Below are positions 2,972 to 53,158 of a DNA stretch of 64,000 nt, one piece after another. The notes under the pieces were generated by a model that saw only the letters and a program-made list of their open reading frames with translations, was not told the origin of the DNA and did no database searches. The stretch's first letter is position 1. Every line of letters starts with the position of its first letter. Both the position numbers and the translations under genes were made by a program. The stretch is taken from assembly GCA_038207785.1 (NCBI GenBank), contig JBBQZK010000001.1, positions 9,405 to 73,404 on the forward strand. Direction: 5' to 3'. This stretch comes from Candidatus Limnocylindria bacterium. Lineage in GTDB: Bacteria > Chloroflexota > Limnocylindria > P2-11E.

Positions 2972-3390
2972 CGCGGCGGGTTCGGGTCGCGGGTGCTGTA
3001 AAGGACGCGACCGATCGCGATGAGCTCGCCCGTCGCGTTGCGCACCTCTGCGTCGGCGACGCCGATCGACCGCCCCAGCCGGACGACCCGTGCCGTCGCG
3101 GTCAATGCCTCACGGCCGGCGACCTTCAGGTAGTCCACCCGCAGGTCGATGGTCGGGACGCCGCGCCCGAGCTGGAGGGCGATCGCGTAGTCGCCGGCGA
3201 TATCGAGCAGCGACCCGATGACGCCCCCGTGGAGATACGGGACGGATGGGTCACTGACGAGCTCTTCCCGGAACGGCATCCGGATGAGCACGGCGCCGGC
3301 CGCGTCGGTGGAGAACTCGAGGCCGAGGAACGCGTGGAACGGGCTGGTCGCGAACTCGCGATCGAGCTCCGCGCGCGCGGCCGGCTCCAT
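2968..3390 (-). CDS. PaaI-family hotdog-fold acyl-CoA thioesterase
   Basis: It is 140 aa and has the PaaI-like ...PYLHGGVIGSLLDIAGDYAIAL... motif. Its ATG overlaps the stop of the acyl-CoA ligase gene. Confidence 0.7.
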   Translation of the reverse strand: MEPAARAELDREFATSPFHAFLGLEFSTDAAGAVLIRMPFREELVSDPSVPYLHGGVIGSLLDIAGDYAIALQLGRGVPTIDLRVDYLKVAGREALTATARVVRLGRSIGVADAEVRNATGELIAIGRVLYSTRDPNPPR

Positions 3391-34890: not shown

Positions 34891-39314
<4,424 letters not shown>

Positions 39315-41524: not shown

Positions 41525-42217
41525 TCACGACGCGAGCTCCTCGAGCGCGGTCTGGCCGAGCACGGCGAGGTACAGCGTCACGCGCTGGCCGGCATCCTCG
41601 AGGTCGGCTCCGGTGAGCTCGCCGATCCGCCTGAGGCGCTGGCGCACGGTGTTGCGGTGCAGGAACAGCGCGCGGGCAACGCCGTTCACGCTGCCATGCG
41701 ACCGCAGGAACTCCTCGAGCGTCCGGAGCTCCTCGCGCTGGGCCTGCTCGGCGAGCGGGCCGAGGACCGCGCGGCAGAAGGTGCGGATCTCCTCTGTCGG
41801 CCGGCCGAGGACGAAGCAGTACGGGCCGAGTTCGGCGAACGCGGTGACGCGCCCGTGGCCGTTGAGCGCGCGCCCCACGCGCACCGCCTGTTCGGCCTGC
41901 AACACGACGAGCTGGAGGGAACGCTCGCGATCGCGCGGACCGGCGATGCCGACCGAGAGCGTCGGATCGCCGAGCGCGTCGGCGACCGCGGCGCGAAGGC
42001 TGGCCGCCGCACCGGCAGGCTCGGCGCCGGGCGGCACGCGCTGGAGCGCGATGACCGTCGGTCCGCGTGCGCCGACGATCCGCGCGTCCGGTGGAAGCGC
42101 CCGGCGGACCGCACCGTGGAGCGACCGCAGGGTGCCCTCGGCCGCGCCCTGGAACGCGAACGCGTAGAGCGGCGATGGCGTCGTCGCCGGGGTCGTCCGC
42201 TCGGATCGCGCGTCCAC
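41525..42217 (-). CDS. PucR/CdaR-family-like transcriptional regulator (C-terminal PucR-type HTH)
   Basis: It has ...LRTLEEFLRSHGSVNGVARALFLHRNTVRQRLRRIGELTG.... It uses a GTG start with an AAGGAG RBS. Confidence 0.6.
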   Translation of the reverse strand: MDARSERTTPATTPSPLYAFAFQGAAEGTLRSLHGAVRRALPPDARIVGARGPTVIALQRVPPGAEPAGAAASLRAAVADALGDPTLSVGIAGPRDRERSLQLVVLQAEQAVRVGRALNGHGRVTAFAELGPYCFVLGRPTEEIRTFCRAVLGPLAEQAQREELRTLEEFLRSHGSVNGVARALFLHRNTVRQRLRRIGELTGADLEDAGQRVTLYLAVLGQTALEELAS

Positions 42218-42441: not shown

Positions 42442-43125
42442 CTAATACGTCCGGCCCCGCTGCCGCGCGATGTCGAAGCGCGCCGTCTTGGCGACCGCCA
42501 TCACGGCCATGACGCCCGCCTGGACGGGGTCGCTGACGATCAGATCGGCCGCCTTCGGCGCCGACCCAGCCATGTTCAGGCTGATCACCAGGATGCCGCG
42601 CCGGCGGACCTCCTCGACGGCCTCGGTGATCTCGCCGCCCATGAGCGAGCCGGCGAGCACGAGGGCCACCGCGCGCGGCAGGCGGGCAACCGCCCGGACC
42701 GCCGCGGCGAGGGTCTGCTCGCCGACGATCGGGATCGTGTCAATGCTGATCTTCTCGCCGCGGATGTTGTGGCGGTCCGCCTCCGAGATCGCGCCGAGCG
42801 CGACCTGCCCGACCTGCGCGCCGCCGCCCACCACGATGATCCGCTTGCCGTAGACCTCGGCCATCGTCGGCACGACCTGGACCGCCGAGAGCACGTCGAG
42901 CCCGTTCAGGTCCGTGACCAGCCGGCCGGGGTCGGCGCTCGCCGGCAGGTCGATCTCGACGTGGACCCGCGCGCGGTCGCCGCGCTCAGGGATCTCGATC
43001 CCGGTGATGTTGCCGCCGTGGGCGAGGATCACGGTCGTGATCGCGTGCAGCGTCCCCGGCCGGTCCGCGCCATCGCACGCGAGCGCGATGGAGACCGGGA
43101 CGCCGGTCCGCTCAGCGGGCGGCAT
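42442..43125 (-). CDS. ACT-domain-containing protein
   Basis: It has an N-terminal ACT-like ...GVPVSIALACDGADRPGTLHAITTVILAHGGNITGIEI.... The ATG at 43125 has a GGAG RBS. Confidence 0.45.
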   Translation of the reverse strand: MPPAERTGVPVSIALACDGADRPGTLHAITTVILAHGGNITGIEIPERGDRARVHVEIDLPASADPGRLVTDLNGLDVLSAVQVVPTMAEVYGKRIIVVGGGAQVGQVALGAISEADRHNIRGEKISIDTIPIVGEQTLAAAVRAVARLPRAVALVLAGSLMGGEITEAVEEVRRRGILVISLNMAGSAPKAADLIVSDPVQAGVMAVMAVAKTARFDIARQRGRTY

Positions 43126-43419
43126 CGAGCTCGCTCCGCTCCAGGTGGAGCGCTTCCAGGAACGCGACGCGGAGGCCGAGCAGGTTCGGATCGCGCCGAT
43201 CGCGCGGGTGCTCGGCGGCAACGCGCAGCACGTCCGAGACGCGTGCCGGCCGATCGGTGAGCAGGATGACGCGGTCCGCGAGATATACCGCCTCGTCGAG
43301 GTCGTTGGTCACGGGCACCAGGGTGGACGGTAGCGCGTCCGCGCCGCGAGGAGGTGATCCTGGGTCGCCGCAGGATGAACGTGTCGAGTTCCCAGGGCAC
43401 GGTGTAGCCGGGCGATGAG
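43112..43419 (-). pseudogene. remnant of an ABC-transporter ATP-binding protein (NitT/TauT-type C-terminus)
   Basis: ...LVPVTNDLDEAVYLADRVILLTDRPARV... matches an ABC ATPase C-terminus. No Walker A or signature motif lies upstream. The upstream part reads in a different frame. Confidence 0.45.
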
Positions 43420-44034
43420 TTACTGCTCGGCGATCGCCAGCCGGCCCGCGAGAGCAACGAACGACCCGGCGAAGCCCCGGCGCATCCAGGTGAGCACGCG
43501 CGGCCGGGCGATGACCTGCCTGCGCACCGACGCGGCGAAGACGCCGTAGCCGACGAACACGACGAAGGTCACGACCATGAAGACGCCGCTGAGCTCCAGC
43601 ATCCGCACGACCCCGTCCGGCTCCGCGCTACTGACGAACTGCGGGAGGAACGCGAAGAAGAAGATCGTGAGCTTGGGGTTGAGGATGTTGATCAGCACCC
43701 CGGTCATGACCATCCTCGCCACACCGCGCGGGGCCGCGCCCTCTGCTACGACGAGGGCGCGCTTGTCCCGGAGCGTGCTCCACGCGAGGTAGAGCAGGTA
43801 GGCGGCGCCCGCGTACTTCAGGCTCTGGAACGCGAGTGCGCTCGCGTGCACGAGTGCCGCGAGACCGGTGATCGCAGCAAGCATGTGCGGGACGATGCCG
43901 AGGGTGCAGCCGAACGCCGCGATGACGCTTGCGCGCGCGCCGCGAGACACGCCGGCGGAGAGCGTGTACAGGACTCCGGTGCCCGGTGTCGCCACCACGA
44001 TGATCGTCGTCACCAGGAAGGCGATGCTCACCAC
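43420..44034 (-). CDS. LysE/RhtB-family amino-acid exporter
   Basis: It is 204 aa with 6 TM segments and a typical LysE N-terminus, MVSIAFLVTTIIVVATPGTGVLYTLSAG. Confidence 0.75.
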   Translation of the reverse strand: MVSIAFLVTTIIVVATPGTGVLYTLSAGVSRGARASVIAAFGCTLGIVPHMLAAITGLAALVHASALAFQSLKYAGAAYLLYLAWSTLRDKRALVVAEGAAPRGVARMVMTGVLINILNPKLTIFFFAFLPQFVSSAEPDGVVRMLELSGVFMVVTFVVFVGYGVFAASVRRQVIARPRVLTWMRRGFAGSFVALAGRLAIAEQ

Positions 44035-44250
44035 GCGCCGCGCATGCCCGCCGCGGTCGCTGAGCCGCCGTCGCCCGGGATATTCGTACGCCCATCACCG
44101 GCCACCGTCGTGATGGTGCCGTCGGTCGCGATCCGGCGCACCCGATTCGTCGCAGGGCCGCCGTCCCGGCTGGATCCCTTCGTGTCCTTGTTGCCCGCGA
44201 TCGTCACCATCGTCCCGGTCCCCGGATCAACGCAAACGTACTTACTGAGA
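44028..44250 (-). pseudogene. fragment of an NHL-repeat protein
   Basis: ...DGGPATNRVRRIATDGTITTVAGDGRTNIPGDGGSA... has an NHL-type blade. There is no credible start or N-terminus. Confidence 0.35.
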
Positions 44251-44306
44251 GCGCGAGCATCACAGCGAGCGAGTGGACCACCATCGATGCGCAGTATCGC
44301 CGTTGA

Positions 44307-44456
44307 GCGGGTGCGGCTCGGTCCAGGGGCAGCTCCGGGACGGTCGGCGCCAGCACGGACGCCTACTCGGTCCTCGCGACGATCCAAGAGCTGTTCGGGC
44401 TGGCCAAACTCGGTGCGGCAGCGCAGGCAACGAGCTTCGCCGCGCTCCTCGACTAG
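44307..44456 (+). pseudogene. C-terminal fragment of a phosphoesterase (phospholipase C/acid phosphatase family) gene
   Basis: ...STDAYSVLATIQELFGLAKLGAAAQATSFAALLD* matches the family's C-terminal motif. An in-frame stop lies just upstream at 44304. Confidence 0.4.
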
Positions 44457-45271
44457 CTCCCCGCGAGGTCACCGAGCCAGTCGGCCGCGAGCGCGACTGC
44501 GGCGAGCGACACGAGCACCCGGTGCACGTGCGGGCGACGCGAAACGGTCACCGCGACCGCGAATAGGGCCAGCGCGGCGAGGAAGAACGCGCCCGGTGCG
44601 CCGCCGCGCGGGCGGACGAGCACGACCACGATGGCCGCAAGCGCGAATGCGGCCCAGCATGCGGCGCGCGCCCGGTCGGTGCCGAGCCGTGCCGCGAGCC
44701 CCGACGCGCCCGCGGACCGGTCCGTCCCGATGTCCGGAAGCGCGTCGGCGAGATGGATCGCGACCACGAGCGGTGCGCCGATGAGGTACGCGACGGGCAC
44801 CAGCAGATCCGCGCGCCCGACGACGGCGAACGCCGCGACCGCGAGCGTCGGCAGCGCGATCGAGAACGGCACGACGCTCGCGATGGTCCGATCGACGCCG
44901 CGGTCGTACACGAACCCGCATGCGGTGCCGAGCGCGACGAGAGCGGCGACCGCCGGGCTCACGACAAACGCGACGGTGAGGCCCGCGGCAAGGAACAGCC
45001 ATGCGCCGAGCCGCGCGCTGCCGGCGGCCACGACGCCACGTGGGATCAGCCGCCAGGGCTTCGTCGCCGCATCGAGCTCGCGGTCGCACCAGTTGTTGTC
45101 GAGCGCGATGGCGACCTGCGTGAGCAGGACCGCCGCGAGGAAACCCACGGTCGGACTGGGCGGCGGCCCGCCCTGTGCGGCGATCCAGACGAACGCGAAT
45201 GCGGCGAGGAGAACGACCGGGATCGCGCGCAGATGCAGGAACTCGGCCCACAGGAACGCGGTGCTGCGCAC
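44453..45271 (-). CDS. UbiA-family prenyltransferase (membrane)
   Basis: It has ...ALDNNWCDRELD..., an NDxxDxxxD-like motif, and multiple TM helices. It uses a GTG start. Confidence 0.65.
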   Translation of the reverse strand: MRSTAFLWAEFLHLRAIPVVLLAAFAFVWIAAQGGPPPSPTVGFLAAVLLTQVAIALDNNWCDRELDAATKPWRLIPRGVVAAGSARLGAWLFLAAGLTVAFVVSPAVAALVALGTACGFVYDRGVDRTIASVVPFSIALPTLAVAAFAVVGRADLLVPVAYLIGAPLVVAIHLADALPDIGTDRSAGASGLAARLGTDRARAACWAAFALAAIVVVLVRPRGGAPGAFFLAALALFAVAVTVSRRPHVHRVLVSLAAVALAADWLGDLAGS

Positions 45272-45335
45272 CGCGGGACGATAGAGGGGCGCCCGCAGGT
45301 CGCGGACGCCGCCTCTACAACAGCAGCCTTGGCCG

Positions 45336-45935
45336 CTAGATGCGGCCGGTGGTGGCCCCGCTCCGCTCGGCCTGCGCGGGCTCGATCCAGGCCTCGAGGA
45401 TCGCGCTCCGCGTGATCTCGGGCGCGGTCGCGTCCATGCCGGGGAAGTCCCCGTCCTGGAGCTCGCGGAAGACGGTCATCGGCACGAGCCGGTCGATCTC
45501 CGTGACGAACTTCGCGCACTCGACGAACGAGCGCTTCGCGAGGGACGCGGTCTCCGTGTCGCCAAGAGCCGTCGCCGTCGTATGCAGCATCGTGTAGCTC
45601 AGGTACACGAGGTTGAGGGCCGTGTGGTCGTCACGCAGGCCCTTCGCAGCGCCTTCGGTGCGGACCTTGTTGTACAGGCCGGCGGCGATGCCGAGGGCGT
45701 CCGAGACGACCTCCTTCACGGGGTGCGTCGGGCTGCCGCCAAGGGCGCCGAGGCGCGTGCCGATGGCCTCATCCTGACGCTTCAGGCTGAGTGCGATGCG
45801 CGCAACGGTCTGCGCCACATCAGGCTTGTCTTTGAACTCGTCCTTCTGCCGCTCCATCGCGGTATGGACGTGGCTCACCAGCGACTTCATGTCGCCGAGG
45901 TACTTCGTGATGGTCTCCTGCTTCTTGTCACCCAT
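45336..45935 (-). CDS. ferritin-like (DUF892/YciE-YciF-like) protein
   Basis: It has a helical repeat architecture and an AAGGAG RBS. It is Lys-rich, with a local GC content lower than its neighbours. Confidence 0.4.
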   Translation of the reverse strand: MGDKKQETITKYLGDMKSLVSHVHTAMERQKDEFKDKPDVAQTVARIALSLKRQDEAIGTRLGALGGSPTHPVKEVVSDALGIAAGLYNKVRTEGAAKGLRDDHTALNLVYLSYTMLHTTATALGDTETASLAKRSFVECAKFVTEIDRLVPMTVFRELQDGDFPGMDATAPEITRSAILEAWIEPAQAERSGATTGRI

Positions 45936-46046
45936 GGTGCTGTCTCTCCTTCATGTACGGGGTGCACGATGTAGAGCAAGGCGTCGGCCACATCTCCGCT
46001 CGCCCGCCCGTCGGCCGGGCGCTCGCGGAGCCGCCAGAATGCCCGC

Positions 46047-46646
46047 ATGAGCGAGCTCACTGCGGCGGAGGTCCGCTCGTTGCGCGCCTTGAAGTCACCA
46101 CACGGCGTACAGCGAGCGCTCGATGGGATGCCCTACCACCTCGCGACGACCGCATGGTCTCCCCGGCTCGTGCTTCGCGAGCGCACGGTGCACTGCCTCG
46201 AGGCGGCGATCTTTGCCGCGGCGGCGCTCCGGCACATCGGGCACCGTCCGCTCATTGTCGATCTCGAAGCGGAGCACGACACCGATCACGTGATCGCGGT
46301 GTACCGCGAGCGCGGCTTGTGGGGTGCGGTGGCGCGCTCCAATTACGCGGGCCTGGAGCATCGCGAGCCCATCTACCGGACGCTCCGCGAGCTCGCGCTC
46401 AGCTACTTCCCGATGTACTTCAACCTGCGCGGTGAGCAGACCCTCCGCACCTTTTCGCGCCCGGTCGACCTGACCCGGTTCGACGCGCGCGGATGGATGA
46501 CCTCGGAGAAGGACGTCTGGTTCATCCCCGAATACCTGCTGACCATCTCCCATACACGGCTGCTGCCATCGGGCGTCGCGAGCGCCCTCCATCGCTTCGA
46601 CAAGCGCACGTTCGACGCCGGGCTGGTCGGGCACCGCTGGACGTGA
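46047..46646 (+). CDS. hypothetical protein (possible transglutaminase-like/papain-fold cysteine hydrolase)
   Basis: It has Cys...His candidates (…TVHCLEAAIFAAA… …DHVIAVY…). No firm family assignment was possible. Confidence 0.3.
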   Translation: MSELTAAEVRSLRALKSPHGVQRALDGMPYHLATTAWSPRLVLRERTVHCLEAAIFAAAALRHIGHRPLIVDLEAEHDTDHVIAVYRERGLWGAVARSNYAGLEHREPIYRTLRELALSYFPMYFNLRGEQTLRTFSRPVDLTRFDARGWMTSEKDVWFIPEYLLTISHTRLLPSGVASALHRFDKRTFDAGLVGHRWT

Positions 46647-46650
46647 CGCC

Positions 46651-47631
46651 CTAGCGGTCGAGCGCGCCGATCGCGAGCAGCAGCCCGTCCTTCTTGATCG
46701 CTGGACTCGTCACGATGAACAGCAGCACGCCCCCGGTCTGCGCGTGGAGTGTCGCGAGCGGCTCGCCGACGAGGTCCACCATCTCGCCCACTACGTCGCC
46801 CTTCCGCAGCATGTGTCCGACGGCAACGCGCGGGTGGAAGATGCCCTCGGCCGGTGAGCGGAGCCAGTCGAACGCGTTGACCACGGTCGGCGGCTTCACG
46901 AGGTGCGGGACGCCGCTCAGCGCGCCGACCGCTCGAAGGATGTTCGTCACACCCTTCACATGTCGCGCCACATCGCGTTCGATCAGCAATCCGCGACCAC
47001 CGGACTCGGCGAGCATGGACGCGACGCCGTTCAGGCACGCGACGGCGTACAGCGAGCCGGGCCGCTCACCCGTGGGCGCGCTTTTCACCGCCCACTTTGC
47101 TCCGTACGCGTTCGCCATGCGTGTGATCCGCGCATCGAGCGCGGGCTCGTCCGTCTGACGGTAAATGACGAATGGCGTGAGATCCTCGATGAGATCGCCC
47201 GCGTGGAGGTCGATCGCGTTATCGCATTTCCGCACGATCTCGGTCAGCAGGCGATGGGCGAACCGCTCGCCCCAGGTTCCGTCGGCGCGACCGGGGAACA
47301 GCCGGTTGAGGTTGTCGTTGTCCTCCGGGTTGACATAGATGCTCCGCTCGTAGAACCCCGGCCGGTTGAGCAGCGGCAGGACCAGCACCGTGCCCCGCAC
47401 CTGCGCTGGATCAAGACCGCGCCCGATACGGATCGCCGCCTCGATGCCGGTGTACTCCGCGGCGTGGATGCCCGCGGTGATGAGGACCGTCGGGCCATCG
47501 GATGAGCCGCTCACCGCGATGAACGGCCAGCGGTACTTCTCTAGACCGGGGTCCCCGCCGAAGGTGAACTCGCCCGTCGCGCGCTCGCCCGTCGCGGGGA
47601 GCGGGATGGGACCCAGAGAACGGCCGGCCAC
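46651..47631 (-). CDS. succinylglutamate desuccinylase/aspartoacylase (AstE/AspA) family zinc hydrolase
   Basis: It has ...ITAGIHAAEYTG... and ...DLHAGD.... It uses a GTG start. Confidence 0.7.
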   Translation of the reverse strand: MAGRSLGPIPLPATGERATGEFTFGGDPGLEKYRWPFIAVSGSSDGPTVLITAGIHAAEYTGIEAAIRIGRGLDPAQVRGTVLVLPLLNRPGFYERSIYVNPEDNDNLNRLFPGRADGTWGERFAHRLLTEIVRKCDNAIDLHAGDLIEDLTPFVIYRQTDEPALDARITRMANAYGAKWAVKSAPTGERPGSLYAVACLNGVASMLAESGGRGLLIERDVARHVKGVTNILRAVGALSGVPHLVKPPTVVNAFDWLRSPAEGIFHPRVAVGHMLRKGDVVGEMVDLVGEPLATLHAQTGGVLLFIVTSPAIKKDGLLLAIGALDR

Positions 47632-47656
47632 GACGACACGCTAGCGCGATGCCGCG

Positions 47657-48511
47657 CTAGGGCGTGCACTTCGTGTAGTCACCGGTCGTGTAGCCCGTCG
47701 AGAGCCACTGCTGGCGCTGCGCCGCCGACCCATGCGTCCAGGCCTCGGGAGCGACGCGCCCCGCGGTCTGTTTCTGGATCCGGTCGTCACCGACCGATGC
47801 AGCCGCATCGAGCGCGGTGGCGATATCGGTCTGCGTCGGCGCCTGCAAGAAGCCCGTCTCGGCTGCATGCTTCGCCCAGACGCCCGCGAAGCAGTCGGCC
47901 TGCAGCTCTTGTTTGACAGAAGTGCTCTGCGGCCCGGCGCGCTGATCACTGCTGAGGATGCCCAGCACATCCTGCACGTGATGCCCGTACTCGTGGGCGA
48001 CGACATACGCCTCGGCGAACGGTCCGCCCTTCGCGCCGAATTTCGTTTGCAGCTCGTTGAAGAACGCGAGATCCAGATACACCTTGCCGTCGACGGGGCA
48101 GTAGAACGGTCCCATCGCCGTGGAGGCGGTCCCGCACCCGGCCTGGGTCAGGTCAGTGAACAGCACGGTCGTAGCCGGCGAATACGTCTTCCCGCGCCGG
48201 CTGAGCTCGTCCTTCCAGTACTGCTGGATGCTGTCGACGTAGCCGACGATCCGGCAGTCCTGTCGTTTGTTGGCGTCCGCGCCGCTCTTGCAGTCTGCGA
48301 CCGTGGGCGCATTCGGGTCCGTGACAGTGGTCGTGTCGGTCGGGATCGCGTTGAGGATCCCGGTCGGATCGACACCGAGGAGCAGCGAGACGACGAGGAT
48401 CACGATGCCGATACCGCCGCCTCCGACCATGAGGCCGCCGCCGCCCATGCGGCGGCCACGGACGTCGTCGACCTGCGATGGATCCAGGCGCGCCTCGTCG
48501 TTGAAGCTCAC
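47657..48511 (-). CDS. neutral zinc metallopeptidase (YpfJ/PF04228-like), N-terminal TM anchor
   Basis: It has ...AYVVAHEYGHHVQ... with the HExxH motif. It has a Gly-rich N-terminus followed by a TM segment. It uses a GTG start. Confidence 0.7.
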   Translation of the reverse strand: MSFNDEARLDPSQVDDVRGRRMGGGGLMVGGGGIGIVILVVSLLLGVDPTGILNAIPTDTTTVTDPNAPTVADCKSGADANKRQDCRIVGYVDSIQQYWKDELSRRGKTYSPATTVLFTDLTQAGCGTASTAMGPFYCPVDGKVYLDLAFFNELQTKFGAKGGPFAEAYVVAHEYGHHVQDVLGILSSDQRAGPQSTSVKQELQADCFAGVWAKHAAETGFLQAPTQTDIATALDAAASVGDDRIQKQTAGRVAPEAWTHGSAAQRQQWLSTGYTTGDYTKCTP

Positions 48512-48594
48512 GCTCGAGGACTCGCAAGACCGCGGCCAACCGCCCGGACAGCCGCCATTTGGGTGCGATACCGTCGCGGCAGCGAGGAGGGGAC

Positions 48595-49479
48595 ATGGCG
48601 GTCGCCATCCGCACCCAGGCGCTCACCAAGGACTACGGCGCGGGCCACGGCATCTTTGACCTTGACCTCGAGGTGGCCGAAGGCGAGGTGTTCGGCTATC
48701 TCGGACCGAACGGGGCGGGCAAGACCACCACCATCAAGCTGCTCATGGGCCTCTGCCACGCGACGCGTGGCCGCGCGGCGATCTTCGGGCTCGACACCGA
48801 TCGCGATGCGGTCGCGGTCAAGAAGCGCGTGGGGTACGTTCCCGGTGAGCTGCCGCAGTTCGGGGGCTGGCGCGGATCCGAGATCGTGGCGTACATCGCC
48901 GGGCTTCGCGGGGATCTCGACGACGCGTGGATCGCCGCGATCGCGTCGCGCCTGCAGCTGGACCTCTCGCGGAAGTATCGCGAGTACTCCCACGGGAACA
49001 AACAGAAGCTCGCGTTGCTGCTCGCCTTCGCGCCGGATCCGGACCTGCTCATCCTCGATGAGCCCACGAGTGGTCTCGATCCGCTCCATCAGCAGGAGTT
49101 CTACGGCCTCGTGCGCGACGCGCGGGCGCGTGGCGCCACGATCTTCATCTCGTCGCACGTGTTATCGGAGGTCGAGCACATCTGCGATCGGGTCGGCATC
49201 GTGCGTGAGGGTCACCTGGCCACCGTCGGCACGCTCGACGAGCTCACCGGCATCCGGGCGCACCACGTGCGGATCGAGTTCGCCGACGCGCCGCCCGCCG
49301 AGCGGCTCGATGCTTTGAAGGGCTTCGAAGGGCTCGCCATCGAGGGCCATCGCGTGACGGGGCTCTATCGGGGGAGCTTCGACGAATTGCTGGCCGCCAT
49401 ATCCGGTTCGCGGATCGCGACGCTCGAGAGCCGCGAGCCGACGCTCGAAGAGGTCTTCCTGAGCTTCTATTCCGGATGA
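48595..49479 (+). CDS. ABC transporter ATP-binding protein (ABC-2/DrrA-like)
   Basis: It has Walker A GPNGAGKTT, the signature HGNKQKL and Walker B LLILDEPT. The ATG at 48595 has an AGGAGG RBS. The ORF-track start at 48559 carries an extension. Confidence 0.85.
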   Translation: MAVAIRTQALTKDYGAGHGIFDLDLEVAEGEVFGYLGPNGAGKTTTIKLLMGLCHATRGRAAIFGLDTDRDAVAVKKRVGYVPGELPQFGGWRGSEIVAYIAGLRGDLDDAWIAAIASRLQLDLSRKYREYSHGNKQKLALLLAFAPDPDLLILDEPTSGLDPLHQQEFYGLVRDARARGATIFISSHVLSEVEHICDRVGIVREGHLATVGTLDELTGIRAHHVRIEFADAPPAERLDALKGFEGLAIEGHRVTGLYRGSFDELLAAISGSRIATLESREPTLEEVFLSFYSG

Positions 49480-51095
49480 CGCTCGTGCGCATCGCCCTTC
49501 GCGCCCAACGGACGGGGACGCTGGCGACGGCCTGGATCGGCACGGTGACGGGCATCGCCAACGGCGTCGGCTACGCCGCGGTCGCGGGGACGACGCACGC
49601 GGAACGCGTTGCCTTCGCCCGGCAGATGGAGCTTCTCGGGAAGCAGCTCTCGTATCTGCTCCCCCAGCCCGTCGCGCTCGACACCATGGGCGGCTACCTC
49701 ACGTGGCGGAGCTTTCCCACGCTCGCGATCGTGTTCGCGATGTGGGGCCTCCTTGCGGCGACGGGTGCAGGTCGCGGGGACGAGGAGCGCGGGCTCACCG
49801 AAGCGTGGCTCGCCACCGGCGTCAGCCGAGCGCGGTGGCTTGCCACCCGCACGGTCGGCTTCATCGCCGTCGCGATGGCGTCGCTCCTCGTCGGATGTGG
49901 GGTCACCACCGTCGCGGTCGCCCTGGTCGGCGATGCTGTGCCGCTCGGCGCGATGGCGTTCGCCGGCCTGCTCGTGCTCGGGGTGGCCGTGTGGGGCTTC
50001 GGACTCGGGCTGCTCGCGGCGCAGCTCGTGACGACGCGGCGAGCGGCGTCGGTCATCGGGGGCGCGGTGATCGTTGCGCTGTACGTCGTCAATTCGGTCC
50101 TCCGGGCGGGCGCGGATCCGGGGCCGCTCAAGTGGCTCTCTCCGTTCTACCTGTTCGACCGCAGCACGCCGCTCGTGCCGGGCGGCACGGTGGACCTCGT
50201 CGCCACGCTCCTCCTCGTCATGATCGGCGTGGTCCTGGCGGGCCTCGCGGCCGTCGCGTTCGCACGGCGTGACCTCGGCGGCGCGCTGTTCGAACGCCGA
50301 CCGGCGACCGCGGCGCCCACGGTGCGGCCGTCCTCCGACCCCCTGCTCCGGCTGCCGGTCCTCGCAGGGGTCGACCAGCAGCGGTGGTGGATCGTCGGCT
50401 GGGCCCTCGGCCTCGCGGTCCTCGGCTACTTCCTCACGTCGCTCGCGAGGACGATCGTGGACTCGCTCGCAGCGATCCCGTCGATGCAGGTCTATCTCAC
50501 GCGCGCGGGGATCAACGCGTACGCGGACATCGTCGGCGTCATCTGGTTCGGGACCGCGCTGCTGCTCATATCCGTCTTCGTGGTCGCGCAGGTGAACGGG
50601 TGGGCCGCGGATGACGCCGAAGGCCGGCTCGAGGCGTCCCTCGCCGCGGGCGCGTCCCGCCACCGGATCGTCCTCGAGCGCCTCGCCGCGTTGCTCGTGG
50701 CCGCCGGAATCGTCGCGGTCGTCAGCAGCGGGGGCGTGTACCTCGCGACGCGGGCGTTCGACATCAGCGTGCCCGGCGATCGGCTGCTGGTCGCCGCGCT
50801 CCTCGTGCTTCCCCTGGTGTTCGCGTTCGGCGGGATCGGACACGCGCTCGTCGGCTGGCGGCCGCGCGTCGCCGTGGTGATCCTGAGCACCGTCGCGATC
50901 GTGTCGTATTTCATTCAGCAGTTCGCGCCGGTCTTCGACGTGCCCGAGTGGGTCAGCAAGCTCTCGTTGTTCGTGCTGTACGGGACGCCGCTGACGAAGG
51001 TCGAATGGTCCGGTGCGCTGACGCTGACGGCCATCGGCATCGCCGGGACGGCTGTAGCGCTGGGCGGGATGCGCCGGCGGGACGTGGGTCGCTAG
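49476..51095 (+). CDS. ABC-2-type transporter permease (duplicated 6-TM domains)
   Basis: It is ATGA-coupled to the ATPase and is a 539-aa polytopic membrane protein. Confidence 0.7.
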   Translation: MTLVRIALRAQRTGTLATAWIGTVTGIANGVGYAAVAGTTHAERVAFARQMELLGKQLSYLLPQPVALDTMGGYLTWRSFPTLAIVFAMWGLLAATGAGRGDEERGLTEAWLATGVSRARWLATRTVGFIAVAMASLLVGCGVTTVAVALVGDAVPLGAMAFAGLLVLGVAVWGFGLGLLAAQLVTTRRAASVIGGAVIVALYVVNSVLRAGADPGPLKWLSPFYLFDRSTPLVPGGTVDLVATLLLVMIGVVLAGLAAVAFARRDLGGALFERRPATAAPTVRPSSDPLLRLPVLAGVDQQRWWIVGWALGLAVLGYFLTSLARTIVDSLAAIPSMQVYLTRAGINAYADIVGVIWFGTALLLISVFVVAQVNGWAADDAEGRLEASLAAGASRHRIVLERLAALLVAAGIVAVVSSGGVYLATRAFDISVPGDRLLVAALLVLPLVFAFGGIGHALVGWRPRVAVVILSTVAIVSYFIQQFAPVFDVPEWVSKLSLFVLYGTPLTKVEWSGALTLTAIGIAGTAVALGGMRRRDVGR

Positions 51096-53158
51096 CGGAC
51101 CGTCACGTACCAGTACACGCCGTAGTCCTCCATCCACTGCGCGCCCTCGACGAGCGGCCGGATGTACAAGCGATACGTCCCGGGCGTCGCGGGCGCCTGG
51201 ATCGTGAACTGGAACCAGGCGACCTGGTTCGGCCCGACGTAGGGAGCGGGCTGGAGGGCCACCCGGTTGTAGCGCGGCCATGCGGTGTTCGGCGAGCCGA
51301 GCTGGCCGTCACCGCCGAGAGGGCTCGGCTGATCCTGGCCGGGCATCGGCGACCACGTGCCGAGGTACGCGACCTCGCCCATGCGTCCGCTGACCCAGCC
51401 CCTCGAGCCCGAATTGTAGTACGCGACGGTCGCCGTCGAGCGGTCGCCGGCGCAGAGCGTCGGATATCCGGACTGGCCGTACCACGACGCATGGAAGCCG
51501 GGCTGCCCCGACGGCAGCGTCGGTGGCGGCGGGATCCCGGGTCCTTCGCTGGAGGTGCACGCAGCCGTCGACGGCGCCGGTGACACGACCGCGAGCTGGC
51601 CGGCTGCGACCGTGACCGTGCCGCTCGATGCGATGGCCCTGGTCGCGTCGATCGTCGCGGTATACGTGCCGGGGGCGAGATCGACGAAGCCGAACCAGCC
51701 CGACCCGTCGGTCGTGCGGCGCGCGATCACCACGTCGTTCGCGCCGTGGAGCGAGACGACCGCCTGCGTGATCGGCGCGCCGCTCGCGTCGACCGCGATC
51801 CCGCGGATGTGGCCCAGCGACGGCTGGTCCTTCCACGGCATGCCCGGCGCCGCGGCGGGTGTCGCGAAGACCGCGGGCGTCACGGGATCATCTGCACTCG
51901 GCTTCGTCAGCGCGGCGATGAGCTGCGCGCGCGCGGACGCGCCGGTGCGGGTCCCGGCATCCGTCGCCGCGTCAGGGGTGCGGTACGAGTAGCCGGCCCA
52001 TCCAGCCGATGGCACGCCGGCCGTGCTCGGCGCGACCGCGGTGCGCACCTGCCGGATGGTCGAGGGGATGTCGTTGAGGTACATCGCGGATCCCACCGCG
52101 CTCGACCGCTGGAACTGCGAATCCTTCGCGAAGTCGGACCACTGCGCGTACCAGGTGCGCTGATTGGCGTCGGTATCGCGCTTGTAGTTCATCGCGATGT
52201 TGAGATCGAGGATGCCCTCGCGCAGCCAGCCGACCCAATCCTGCAGCACTTCGGCATACGTCCGGGTCTTCTCCCAGCCGCCGACGCTCTGCGGCCCCGA
52301 GCCGTACGTGATCGTGTCCGCGCTGATCCGGATCGCAGGCCGGATGGCGTACGTCTCGAGATAGATCTTGCGCACGATGTTCGTGACCTGGTCGCGCCGC
52401 CACTGCGTCCACGCGACGTCCGTGTTCGCCGGCCGGTCCGTGCGTCCGGTCGAGGCCTGGAAGCGCGCGAGGGCCGTCGGGTTGTAGCCCCAAGAGGGCA
52501 CGTTCGTGCCGAAGTTGCCGTCGGGGTACCGGATGCGGTCGAGGTTGATGCCGTCGACGTTGTAGCCGCGCGCGATGCTCGTCGCGATGTTCACGATGTA
52601 CGCGGCGGCATCGGGGTGCCCGGGATCGATGAAGTACTCGTTCGTGAGGTTGGACGCGCCGTCGGAGCGGTAGTCGATCCAGTTGGCGGCGCCGGTCGTC
52701 GCCGGCCCGTGCTGGTTGTACGCGTGATTCGGGTCAGTAGGTGCGGCCGGGCCCTGCCACACGCCGGTGGTGATGATCCACGCGTGGACCTGGATGCCCT
52801 GGGCGTGCGCGGCATCGATGAGCGACTGCAGCGGATCGAACGGCGCGGGCGAGACCCCGGCGTATGCCGCGCGGGGCAGGCTCGAGCGGTTGCAAAGGCA
52901 GTCGCCGCGACGGACGACCTGCGCGACGATCGCGTTCATGTTGGCGCTCTTGACGTCCGTGACGAGCTGATCGATCTGGGCCTGCGTGTACAGGCCGTCC
53001 CCGAACGCGTCGACCCAGAACGCCCGCAGCTGGCCGCCGGCCGCGGCGACGGGCGCGATGTTCGGATCGACCGTCGTGCCCGCGGCGCGGGCTGGAGCCG
53101 CGCAGGCGAGCGCGGCCAGCACGACCGCGAGCGCGATCCCGATCGAGCGGCGGATCAC
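51092..53158 (-). CDS. secreted glycosyl-hydrolase-like family 10 (GHL10/PF02638-like) protein with a CarbR-like domain and a C-terminal ~140-aa beta domain
   Basis: It has a signal peptide VIRRSIGIALAVVLAALACAAPARA and ...FWVDAFGDGLYT... and ...GIQVHAWI.... The GTG at 53158 overlaps the upstream stop (GTGA). Confidence 0.55.
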   Translation of the reverse strand: MIRRSIGIALAVVLAALACAAPARAAGTTVDPNIAPVAAAGGQLRAFWVDAFGDGLYTQAQIDQLVTDVKSANMNAIVAQVVRRGDCLCNRSSLPRAAYAGVSPAPFDPLQSLIDAAHAQGIQVHAWIITTGVWQGPAAPTDPNHAYNQHGPATTGAANWIDYRSDGASNLTNEYFIDPGHPDAAAYIVNIATSIARGYNVDGINLDRIRYPDGNFGTNVPSWGYNPTALARFQASTGRTDRPANTDVAWTQWRRDQVTNIVRKIYLETYAIRPAIRISADTITYGSGPQSVGGWEKTRTYAEVLQDWVGWLREGILDLNIAMNYKRDTDANQRTWYAQWSDFAKDSQFQRSSAVGSAMYLNDIPSTIRQVRTAVAPSTAGVPSAGWAGYSYRTPDAATDAGTRTGASARAQLIAALTKPSADDPVTPAVFATPAAAPGMPWKDQPSLGHIRGIAVDASGAPITQAVVSLHGANDVVIARRTTDGSGWFGFVDLAPGTYTATIDATRAIASSGTVTVAAGQLAVVSPAPSTAACTSSEGPGIPPPPTLPSGQPGFHASWYGQSGYPTLCAGDRSTATVAYYNSGSRGWVSGRMGEVAYLGTWSPMPGQDQPSPLGGDGQLGSPNTAWPRYNRVALQPAPYVGPNQVAWFQFTIQAPATPGTYRLYIRPLVEGAQWMEDYGVYWYVTVR
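51095..51520. repeat. copy A of a ~420-bp direct repeat encoding the shared secreted beta domain
   Basis: It is roughly 80% identical at the nucleotide level and roughly 75% at the protein level with 53870-54295. Confidence 0.6.

Follow-up and report, generated by a model that had tools for sequence, protein, structure and literature searches.

How does an intact exporter gene come to stand among the remains of three unrelated genes? The question is raised by a 64,000-nucleotide (nt) stretch of a Candidatus Limnocylindria bacterium (contig JBBQZK010000001.1 of assembly GCA_038207785.1, positions 9,405 to 73,404), called the window here, with coordinates counted from its first letter. The source is a soil Chloroflexota of Limnocylindria type whose genome is apparently metagenome-derived, and the window has a GC content of 70% (mean 0.702). 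An earlier note on this DNA had described an intact LysE exporter packed, within 1.3 kb, among remnants of an ATP-binding cassette (ABC) ATPase, an NHL-repeat protein and a phosphoesterase, and had suggested past rearrangement, deletion or insertion. Comparison with related genomes points to deletion: we put the probability at roughly 85% that pseudogenes around a native LysE gene have recently been eroded by deletions. Reading along the minus strand, the order is UbiA (45271-44453), an NHL-like open reading frame (ORF) of 119 amino acids (aa) at 44387-44028, LysE, a 68-aa ORF (43318-43112) that looks like an ABC ATPase C-terminus, and a gene with ACT and DUF5612 domains, followed by a PucR-type regulator and then an acetolactate synthase. 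The features are as follows.

44453-45271, minus strand: UbiA-family prenyltransferase, intact, 272 aa (Pfam UbiA E=4.1e-27)
44322-44456, plus strand: phosphoesterase (PF04185) remnant, last 44 codons and stop (phmmer, collinearity with relative L096)
44249-44320, minus strand: NHL 5′ remnant, 36 nt of leader and codons 1-12 (85% DNA identity to relative L089, 886-957)
44239-44248: AT-rich filler of 10 nt, TCAGTAAGTA on the minus strand, 30% GC (comparison with L089)
44149-44238, minus strand: NHL remnant, codons ~200-229 of the 329-codon L089 gene (82% DNA identity to L089 1518-1607)
44028-44153, minus strand: NHL remnant, codons 253-293 (88% DNA identity to L089 1678-1800)
43420-44031, minus strand: LysE/RhtB-family exporter, intact, 203 aa, GTG start at 44031 (Pfam LysE E=6.9e-34)
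43393-43419: spacer of 27 nt from the LysE stop to the first clear ABC homology (chance-level identity to relative L005)
43112-43392, minus strand: SsuB-like ABC ATPase remnant, codons ~158-250 of 250 (L005 alignment)
42442-43125, minus strand: ACT and DUF5612 gene, intact (Pfam DUF5612 E=2e-67)

All three truncated fragments proved to be what the earlier note took them for, in that each is homologous to an intact gene in relatives and carries disabling lesions. Pfam and NCBIfam scans returned nothing for any of them because they are too short, and the homology had to be established by other means. The NHL fragment matched teneurin-like NHL repeats in the PDB (E=5e-21), and an intact counterpart lies in the sister contig L089, where the gene starts at L089 position 922 and encodes 329 aa (Pfam NHL E=3e-19). 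The family assignment therefore stands, but the extent has been adjusted: instead of a single blade at about 44028-44250 there are three pieces within 44031-44320 (44320-44249, 44238-44149 and 44153-44031), with 82-88% DNA identity to the L089 gene and together 83 of its 329 codons. Three deletions account for the missing parts. The first removed 560 nt (L089 958-1517) and left the 10-nt filler TCAGTAAGTA in their place. The second, of 75 nt and in-frame, lies between 5-nt GCGAC microhomology repeats. The third took 126 nt, from the final 37 codons through the spacer to the first base of the TTG with which LysE began; it joins ...GCGTGG to TGAGC..., and the fusion gives LysE a GTG start that overlaps the TGA stop of the NHL frame (GTGA, 44031-44028). 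The NHL frame is broken after codon 12, and the frame opened by the original ATG (44284-44282) now ends after 26 codons. What remains of the propeller is about 1.5 repeats (71 codons), compared with the 329-aa protein of L089. A locally lower-GC patch noted at 44221-44300 was also borne out (GC 0.5875 against the window mean of 0.702, in the 2nd percentile of 80-nt windows); it holds the filler at its core together with the NHL 5′ leader and signal-peptide codons.

The phosphoesterase fragment was harder to place. Pfam, NCBIfam, the PDB, a word-indexed protein search and a plasmid tblastn search all yielded nothing, and an exhaustive phmmer search of 1.84 billion representative proteins gave one match: P0001, a PF04185 Phosphoesterase protein (E=1.3e-5; 63% identity over residues 181-223 of 224). 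The plus-strand frame at 44307-44456, which ends in the peptide ...DAYSVLATIQELFGLAKLG..., agrees at 38 of 44 residues with P0134, a protein of L096, and at 35 of 44 with P0122, both from the sister lineage. L096 comes from a metagenome-assembled genome (MAG) of the L089 lineage (their phosphoesterases are 99% identical) and is collinear with window positions 44322-51097 at 88-90% identity; the remnant is 86% identical to its intact gene. These comparisons uphold the family but shorten the span, since homology covers 44322-44453 instead of 44307-44456 and the DNA collinearity with L096 starts exactly at 44322. Only the last 44 of about 290 codons are kept. In L089 coordinates the deletion spans about 874 nt, taking some 250 codons from the upstream part of the gene as well as 88 nt of the divergent intergenic region. 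The catalytic N-terminal PF04185 part (P0122 matches profile positions 112-356) is missing from the remnant. The genomic contexts of P0001 (locus L086) and P0123 (locus L097) are unrelated to that of the window.

On the other side of LysE, the ABC fragment matched NrtD and CmpD, nitrate and bicarbonate ABC ATPases, in the PDB (E=5e-7). Over a stretch of 66 residues its protein shares 86% identity with an intact ATPase of 250 aa (residues 182-247) encoded in L005, a locus from a Candidatus Limnocylindria MAG. DNA homology begins at about 43390-43394 (codon 158-159, just past Walker B) and ends at the stop at 43112, with 78% identity (219 of 282 aligned columns), so about 92 of 250 codons, the last 37%, are kept. 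The earlier description of an ATPase C-terminus with its frame broken upstream is thereby confirmed: two 1-nt deletions, at 43364/63 and 43329/28, break the frame. The H-loop histidine has become asparagine (VTND, against VTHD in L005 and ITHD in NrtD/CmpD of the PDB), and Walker A, the Q-loop, the LSGGQ signature and Walker B are absent; Pfam ABC_tran spans residues 22-157 of the L005 protein, and window homology covers only what follows from codon 158-159. The L005 ATPase gene stands third in its operon, after those for an SsuA-family binding protein (234.6 bits against a cutoff of 163.5) and a permease. That operon is placed between terC and metX-metY-(CoA-binding)-DUF5612, and two further loci, L002 and L003, have the L005 gene order minus the ABC operon. 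The binding-protein and permease genes have no match anywhere in the 64-kb window. The window fragment thus resembles the SsuABC aliphatic-sulfonate importer (NitT/TauT family) in being the C-terminal 92 ATPase codons, and differs from it in lacking the core motifs, the H-loop histidine, an intact frame and the partner genes. At its far end the remnant runs into its neighbour: the DUF5612 ATG falls 14 nt inside it, and a 12-nt sequence, GCGAGCTCGATG, is common to the window and to the DUF5612 start region of the related locus L001 and is very similar to the 3′ end of the ATPase gene in L005. These features are consistent with a microhomology-mediated deletion that joined the ABC 3′ end to the DUF5612 start.

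Could the fragments be products of assembly or sequencing, arising either from a metagenome contig assembled as a chimera or from false indels that put intact genes out of frame? The source is apparently metagenome-derived, the closest relatives are all MAGs, and two of the lesions are single-base deletions, all of which would suit an artefact. However, a Logan contig (L087, run SRR19962011) equals window positions 47031-42573 at 100% over 4459 nt, with 0 mismatches and 0 gaps, so that a second assembly reproduces every fragment and both frameshifts across the whole zone. The phosphoesterase/NHL side lacks over 1.6 kb of coding sequence, which is beyond single-base errors, and the pieces are 82-90% and not 100% identical to relatives, which argues against stitched-in reads of co-occurring strains. 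Large parts of each gene are missing and homologues were found, so the remnants are neither merely mis-framed intact genes nor sequences without similarity, the two outcomes that would have undone the original claim. An artefact is accordingly left with only the slimmest chance.

If the remnants are real, the next question is whether LysE arrived among them or was there before the decay. Its identity as an intact gene is confirmed by a full-length Pfam match (E=6.9e-34 over profile positions 1-191 of 193) and by its length of 203 aa, which is that of most homologues among the matches listed and of a 100% match, P0002, which occurs on a 145-kb NCBI contig and on the Logan contig of SRR19962011. 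Two tandem GTG codons stand at the start (44029-44034). Given the length of P0002 and of most listed homologues, translation probably begins at the second GTG (44031), and this start one codon later explains why an exact look-up of the 204-aa form gave no match. The best NCBIfam models are those for homoserine/homoserine-lactone and homoserine/threonine efflux, although the score is below the curated cutoff (111.8 against 209 bits). The protein is like RhtB/LysE exporters (TIGR00949; E. coli RhtB) in its full-length LysE domain and its RhtB-type best models, and unlike them in scoring below the curated equivalog cutoffs.

Synteny comparison with relatives recovered the ancestral order on the UbiA-to-LysE side. 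Five sister contigs (L088, L089, L093, L094 and L095) carry LysE at 87-89% DNA identity, and in all five an intact NHL 3′ end lies directly upstream of it, with the NHL stop, 15 nt and a LysE TTG start in succession and no overlap. L089 has the full arrangement, with an opposite-strand phosphoesterase (265 aa to the contig end), 124 nt of divergent intergenic DNA, NHL and LysE in this order. Pieced together from these relatives, the ancestral order is UbiA, a convergent phosphoesterase, the 124-nt divergent intergenic region, NHL (329 codons) and LysE/RhtB, with tRNA-Gln downstream. Because the NHL-LysE adjacency is ancestral in the sister contigs, LysE did not arrive by insertion; deletions removed the genes around it. 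This bears directly on the proposal that LysE, alone or with neighbours, was brought in by horizontal transfer and split or truncated existing genes. That proposal can draw on LysE homologues at 69-75% identity in Actinomycetota, Chloroflexota and one Mesorhizobium (among the matches listed), on the variable flank downstream of LysE with its tRNA-Gln fragments and integrases in relatives, and on the break of L001 synteny at the DUF5612 start. Against it stand not only the adjacency in five sister contigs but also the collinearity of the UbiA-to-phosphoesterase side with L096, which makes LysE native to the block. Nor do the NHL and ABC fragments belong to a single, interrupted gene. The decay zone holds no integrase, repeats flanking LysE are short matches at chance level only, and no tRNA or tRNA-Gln fragment occurs in the window. 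The GC content at third codon positions of LysE (0.93) matches that of its neighbours. Insertion is highly improbable on these grounds, and of the three processes named in the earlier note deletion is supported, insertion of LysE is not, and rearrangement is possible only at the LysE/ABC junction.

Under deletional erosion, the sequence of events would have been as follows. The phosphoesterase and NHL genes would have become dispensable in the window lineage, and at least four separate deletions (of ~874 nt, 560 nt with the 10-nt filler, 75 nt and 126 nt) cut them down, the first of these taking most of the phosphoesterase along with its promoter side. The ABC gene has lost its 5′ part and partner genes and carries the two 1-nt frameshifts and the H-loop substitution, and its 3′ end meets the ACT/DUF5612 start at a short microhomology. 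Purifying selection would have spared LysE and the intact genes on either side, and the deletions themselves would be successive neutral events under the deletion bias of bacteria.

When did this happen? The ratio of nonsynonymous to synonymous substitution rates (dN/dS) offers some indication, at a synonymous divergence (dS) of 0.3-0.8 to the relatives compared. LysE is under purifying selection, with a dN/dS of 0.105-0.112 against L088 and L089 (202 codons). The NHL pieces give 0.15 against L089 (70 codons), the phosphoesterase piece 0.15 against L096 (44 codons), the ABC piece 0.085 against L005 (66 codons) and intact UbiA 0.20 against L096 (272 codons). Since the remnant values are close to that of intact UbiA, purifying selection would have acted on the remnants during most of their divergence from these relatives, and inactivation would be recent. 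The same low values could instead mean that the remnants are kept as operon leaders, the NHL 3′ ORF feeding ribosomes to LysE and the ABC ORF overlapping the DUF5612 start. The GTGA stop/start overlap in the window and the 14-nt overlap of the ABC ORF with the DUF5612 ATG would be fitting arrangements for such leaders. In L090-L092 LysE is overlapped in the same GTGA manner by an unrelated 152-aa upstream ORF, and a motif present upstream of DUF5612 in L001 and L004 (described below) is missing in the window, so that another source of expression would be needed. Recent inactivation explains the low dN/dS equally well, however, and the five sister contigs have the 15-nt gap and no overlap. ORFs of 60-120 aa arise by chance throughout the window at 70% GC, the NHL start codon now opens a 26-codon dead-end frame, and no promoter-like site was found (searches for promoter and terminator consensus sites gave none, and no Rfam family occurs in the decay zone). 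Retention as leaders is thus unlikely, and the remnants appear to be non-functional.

The LysE/ABC junction is a separate matter. Homology to the window ends at the LysE stop (43421) in every LysE-bearing relative, and the 27 nt from there to 43393 have no clear match and hold the junction of two ancestral segments. What follows LysE differs among the relatives. In L089 a complete tRNA-Gln (L089 4076-4148) follows after 1.5 kb of other DNA; L088 (1083-1145) and L094 (824-885) have a ~47-nt 3′ partial copy of tRNA-Gln(CTG) straight after the LysE stop; and L090 and L091, of which L090 is a more distant relative, carry a tyrosine integrase 0.8 kb from LysE (L090 9407-10375). Given these differences, the flank downstream of LysE is a variable, probably tRNA-linked integration site. 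Integrative elements target the 3′ ends of tRNA genes, and the relatives resemble tRNA-linked hotspots in their tRNA-Gln, 3′ partial copies or tyrosine integrase after LysE and in differing between close strains, unlike the window site, which has no tRNA, tRNA fragment or integrase. It is a conjecture that such a hotspot is linked to the LysE/ABC junction of the window. The junction may reflect one large deletion or a rearrangement, which under the erosion scenario would have occurred at this variable flank.

Several points weigh against deletional erosion as an account of the whole locus. First, no relative has LysE near the ssu operon, and the LysE/ABC junction is not reconstructable; the relatives moreover differ from one another directly after the LysE stop. 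Second, that the remnant ORFs (60-119 aa and 68 aa) have lost their function is a judgement from sequence. Third, the L087 contig may share reads with the genome record, so that the two 1-nt deletions could still reflect errors in those reads. Fourth, the low dN/dS of the remnants also fits continued weak constraint, and estimates from 44-70 codons are imprecise. Two more far-reaching ideas can be set beside these points: that the remnants are minimal pieces kept by selection as coupling leaders, since they hold the sequence context in which translation of the two surviving genes starts, and that LysE and DUF5612 have been merged in a new operon, or that a single episode of error-prone repair at a tRNA-Gln integration hotspot produced both the clustered deletions and the filler. 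Both are unlikely.

As erosion, the locus is a clean example of a well-known process, ordinary bacterial pseudogene decay. Bacterial genomes have a known deletion bias (Kuo & Ochman 2009, PMC2817411; Kuo & Ochman 2010, PMC2916853), and the second of these papers describes how young pseudogenes are removed fast while a few highly degraded ones persist. A 2026 study reports genome expansion in one family of the source's class and reduction in another, and does not cover this locus (PMC13212565). The window shares with known pseudogene erosion the piecemeal deletion, remnants recognisable only through intact orthologues, and the sparing of essential neighbours. It is unlike those cases in three ways: the host is neither pathogen nor symbiont but a free-living, high-GC soil Chloroflexota; the decay has struck three adjacent, unrelated genes within 1.3 kb; and one junction carries 10 nt of filler DNA. 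No new biological question is opened by the locus. Its value lies in base-level breakpoints, which document how a free-living uncultivated soil bacterium would shed dispensable genes piecewise while sparing a selected neighbour, and in showing which genes this lineage in particular has lost: those for a phosphoesterase of secreted type, a propeller protein with NHL repeats and an ABC importer of sulfonate type. Annotators should label the ORFs of 60-119 aa and 68 aa as remnants of pseudogenes and not as hypothetical proteins.

The intact genes on either side of the zone have their own points of interest. The nearest relatives of the DUF5612 protein, at 77-89% identity, come from Candidatus Limnocylindria (Chloroflexota) MAGs, mostly from soil; an exact look-up of the protein gave no match. 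Window positions 35409 to ~43157 are collinear with L001, and the synteny ends at the DUF5612 start. Upstream of that start, L001 (5225-5250) and L004 (~2985-3010) have a common motif, CACACTGGTGCTC[G/A]TGACGCG, which may be a regulatory element; it is absent in the window, where the ABC remnant end stands in its place. In L002, L003 and L005 the ACT and DUF5612 gene is preceded by metX (homoserine O-acetyltransferase), metY (O-acetylhomoserine sulfhydrylase) and the CoA-binding gene, none of which has a match in the window, and this neighbourhood hints at a role of the gene in methionine or sulfur metabolism.

UbiA is convergent with the phosphoesterase remnant, and their stop codons overlap in CTAG at 44453-44456; L096 has a 272-aa UbiA orthologue with the same 4-nt overlap with its intact phosphoesterase gene. 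A metagenome scan with UbiA gave five loci at 60% identity, without synteny. Further along the stretch collinear with L096, a 123-aa DUF1801 gene between two 199-aa genes (L096 2043-2570) is absent from window positions 45939-46081, a difference of 386 nt that is either a further deletion in the window lineage or an insertion in L096, and another indel, of 65 nt, lies at window position 48563. Beyond the ACT and DUF5612 gene, the PucR-type regulator (41525-42217, minus strand) has only 230 aa, with a partial GGDEF-like domain and HTH_30. As the aligned part of its L001 counterpart has a similar length, it looks like a natural short form rather than further decay.

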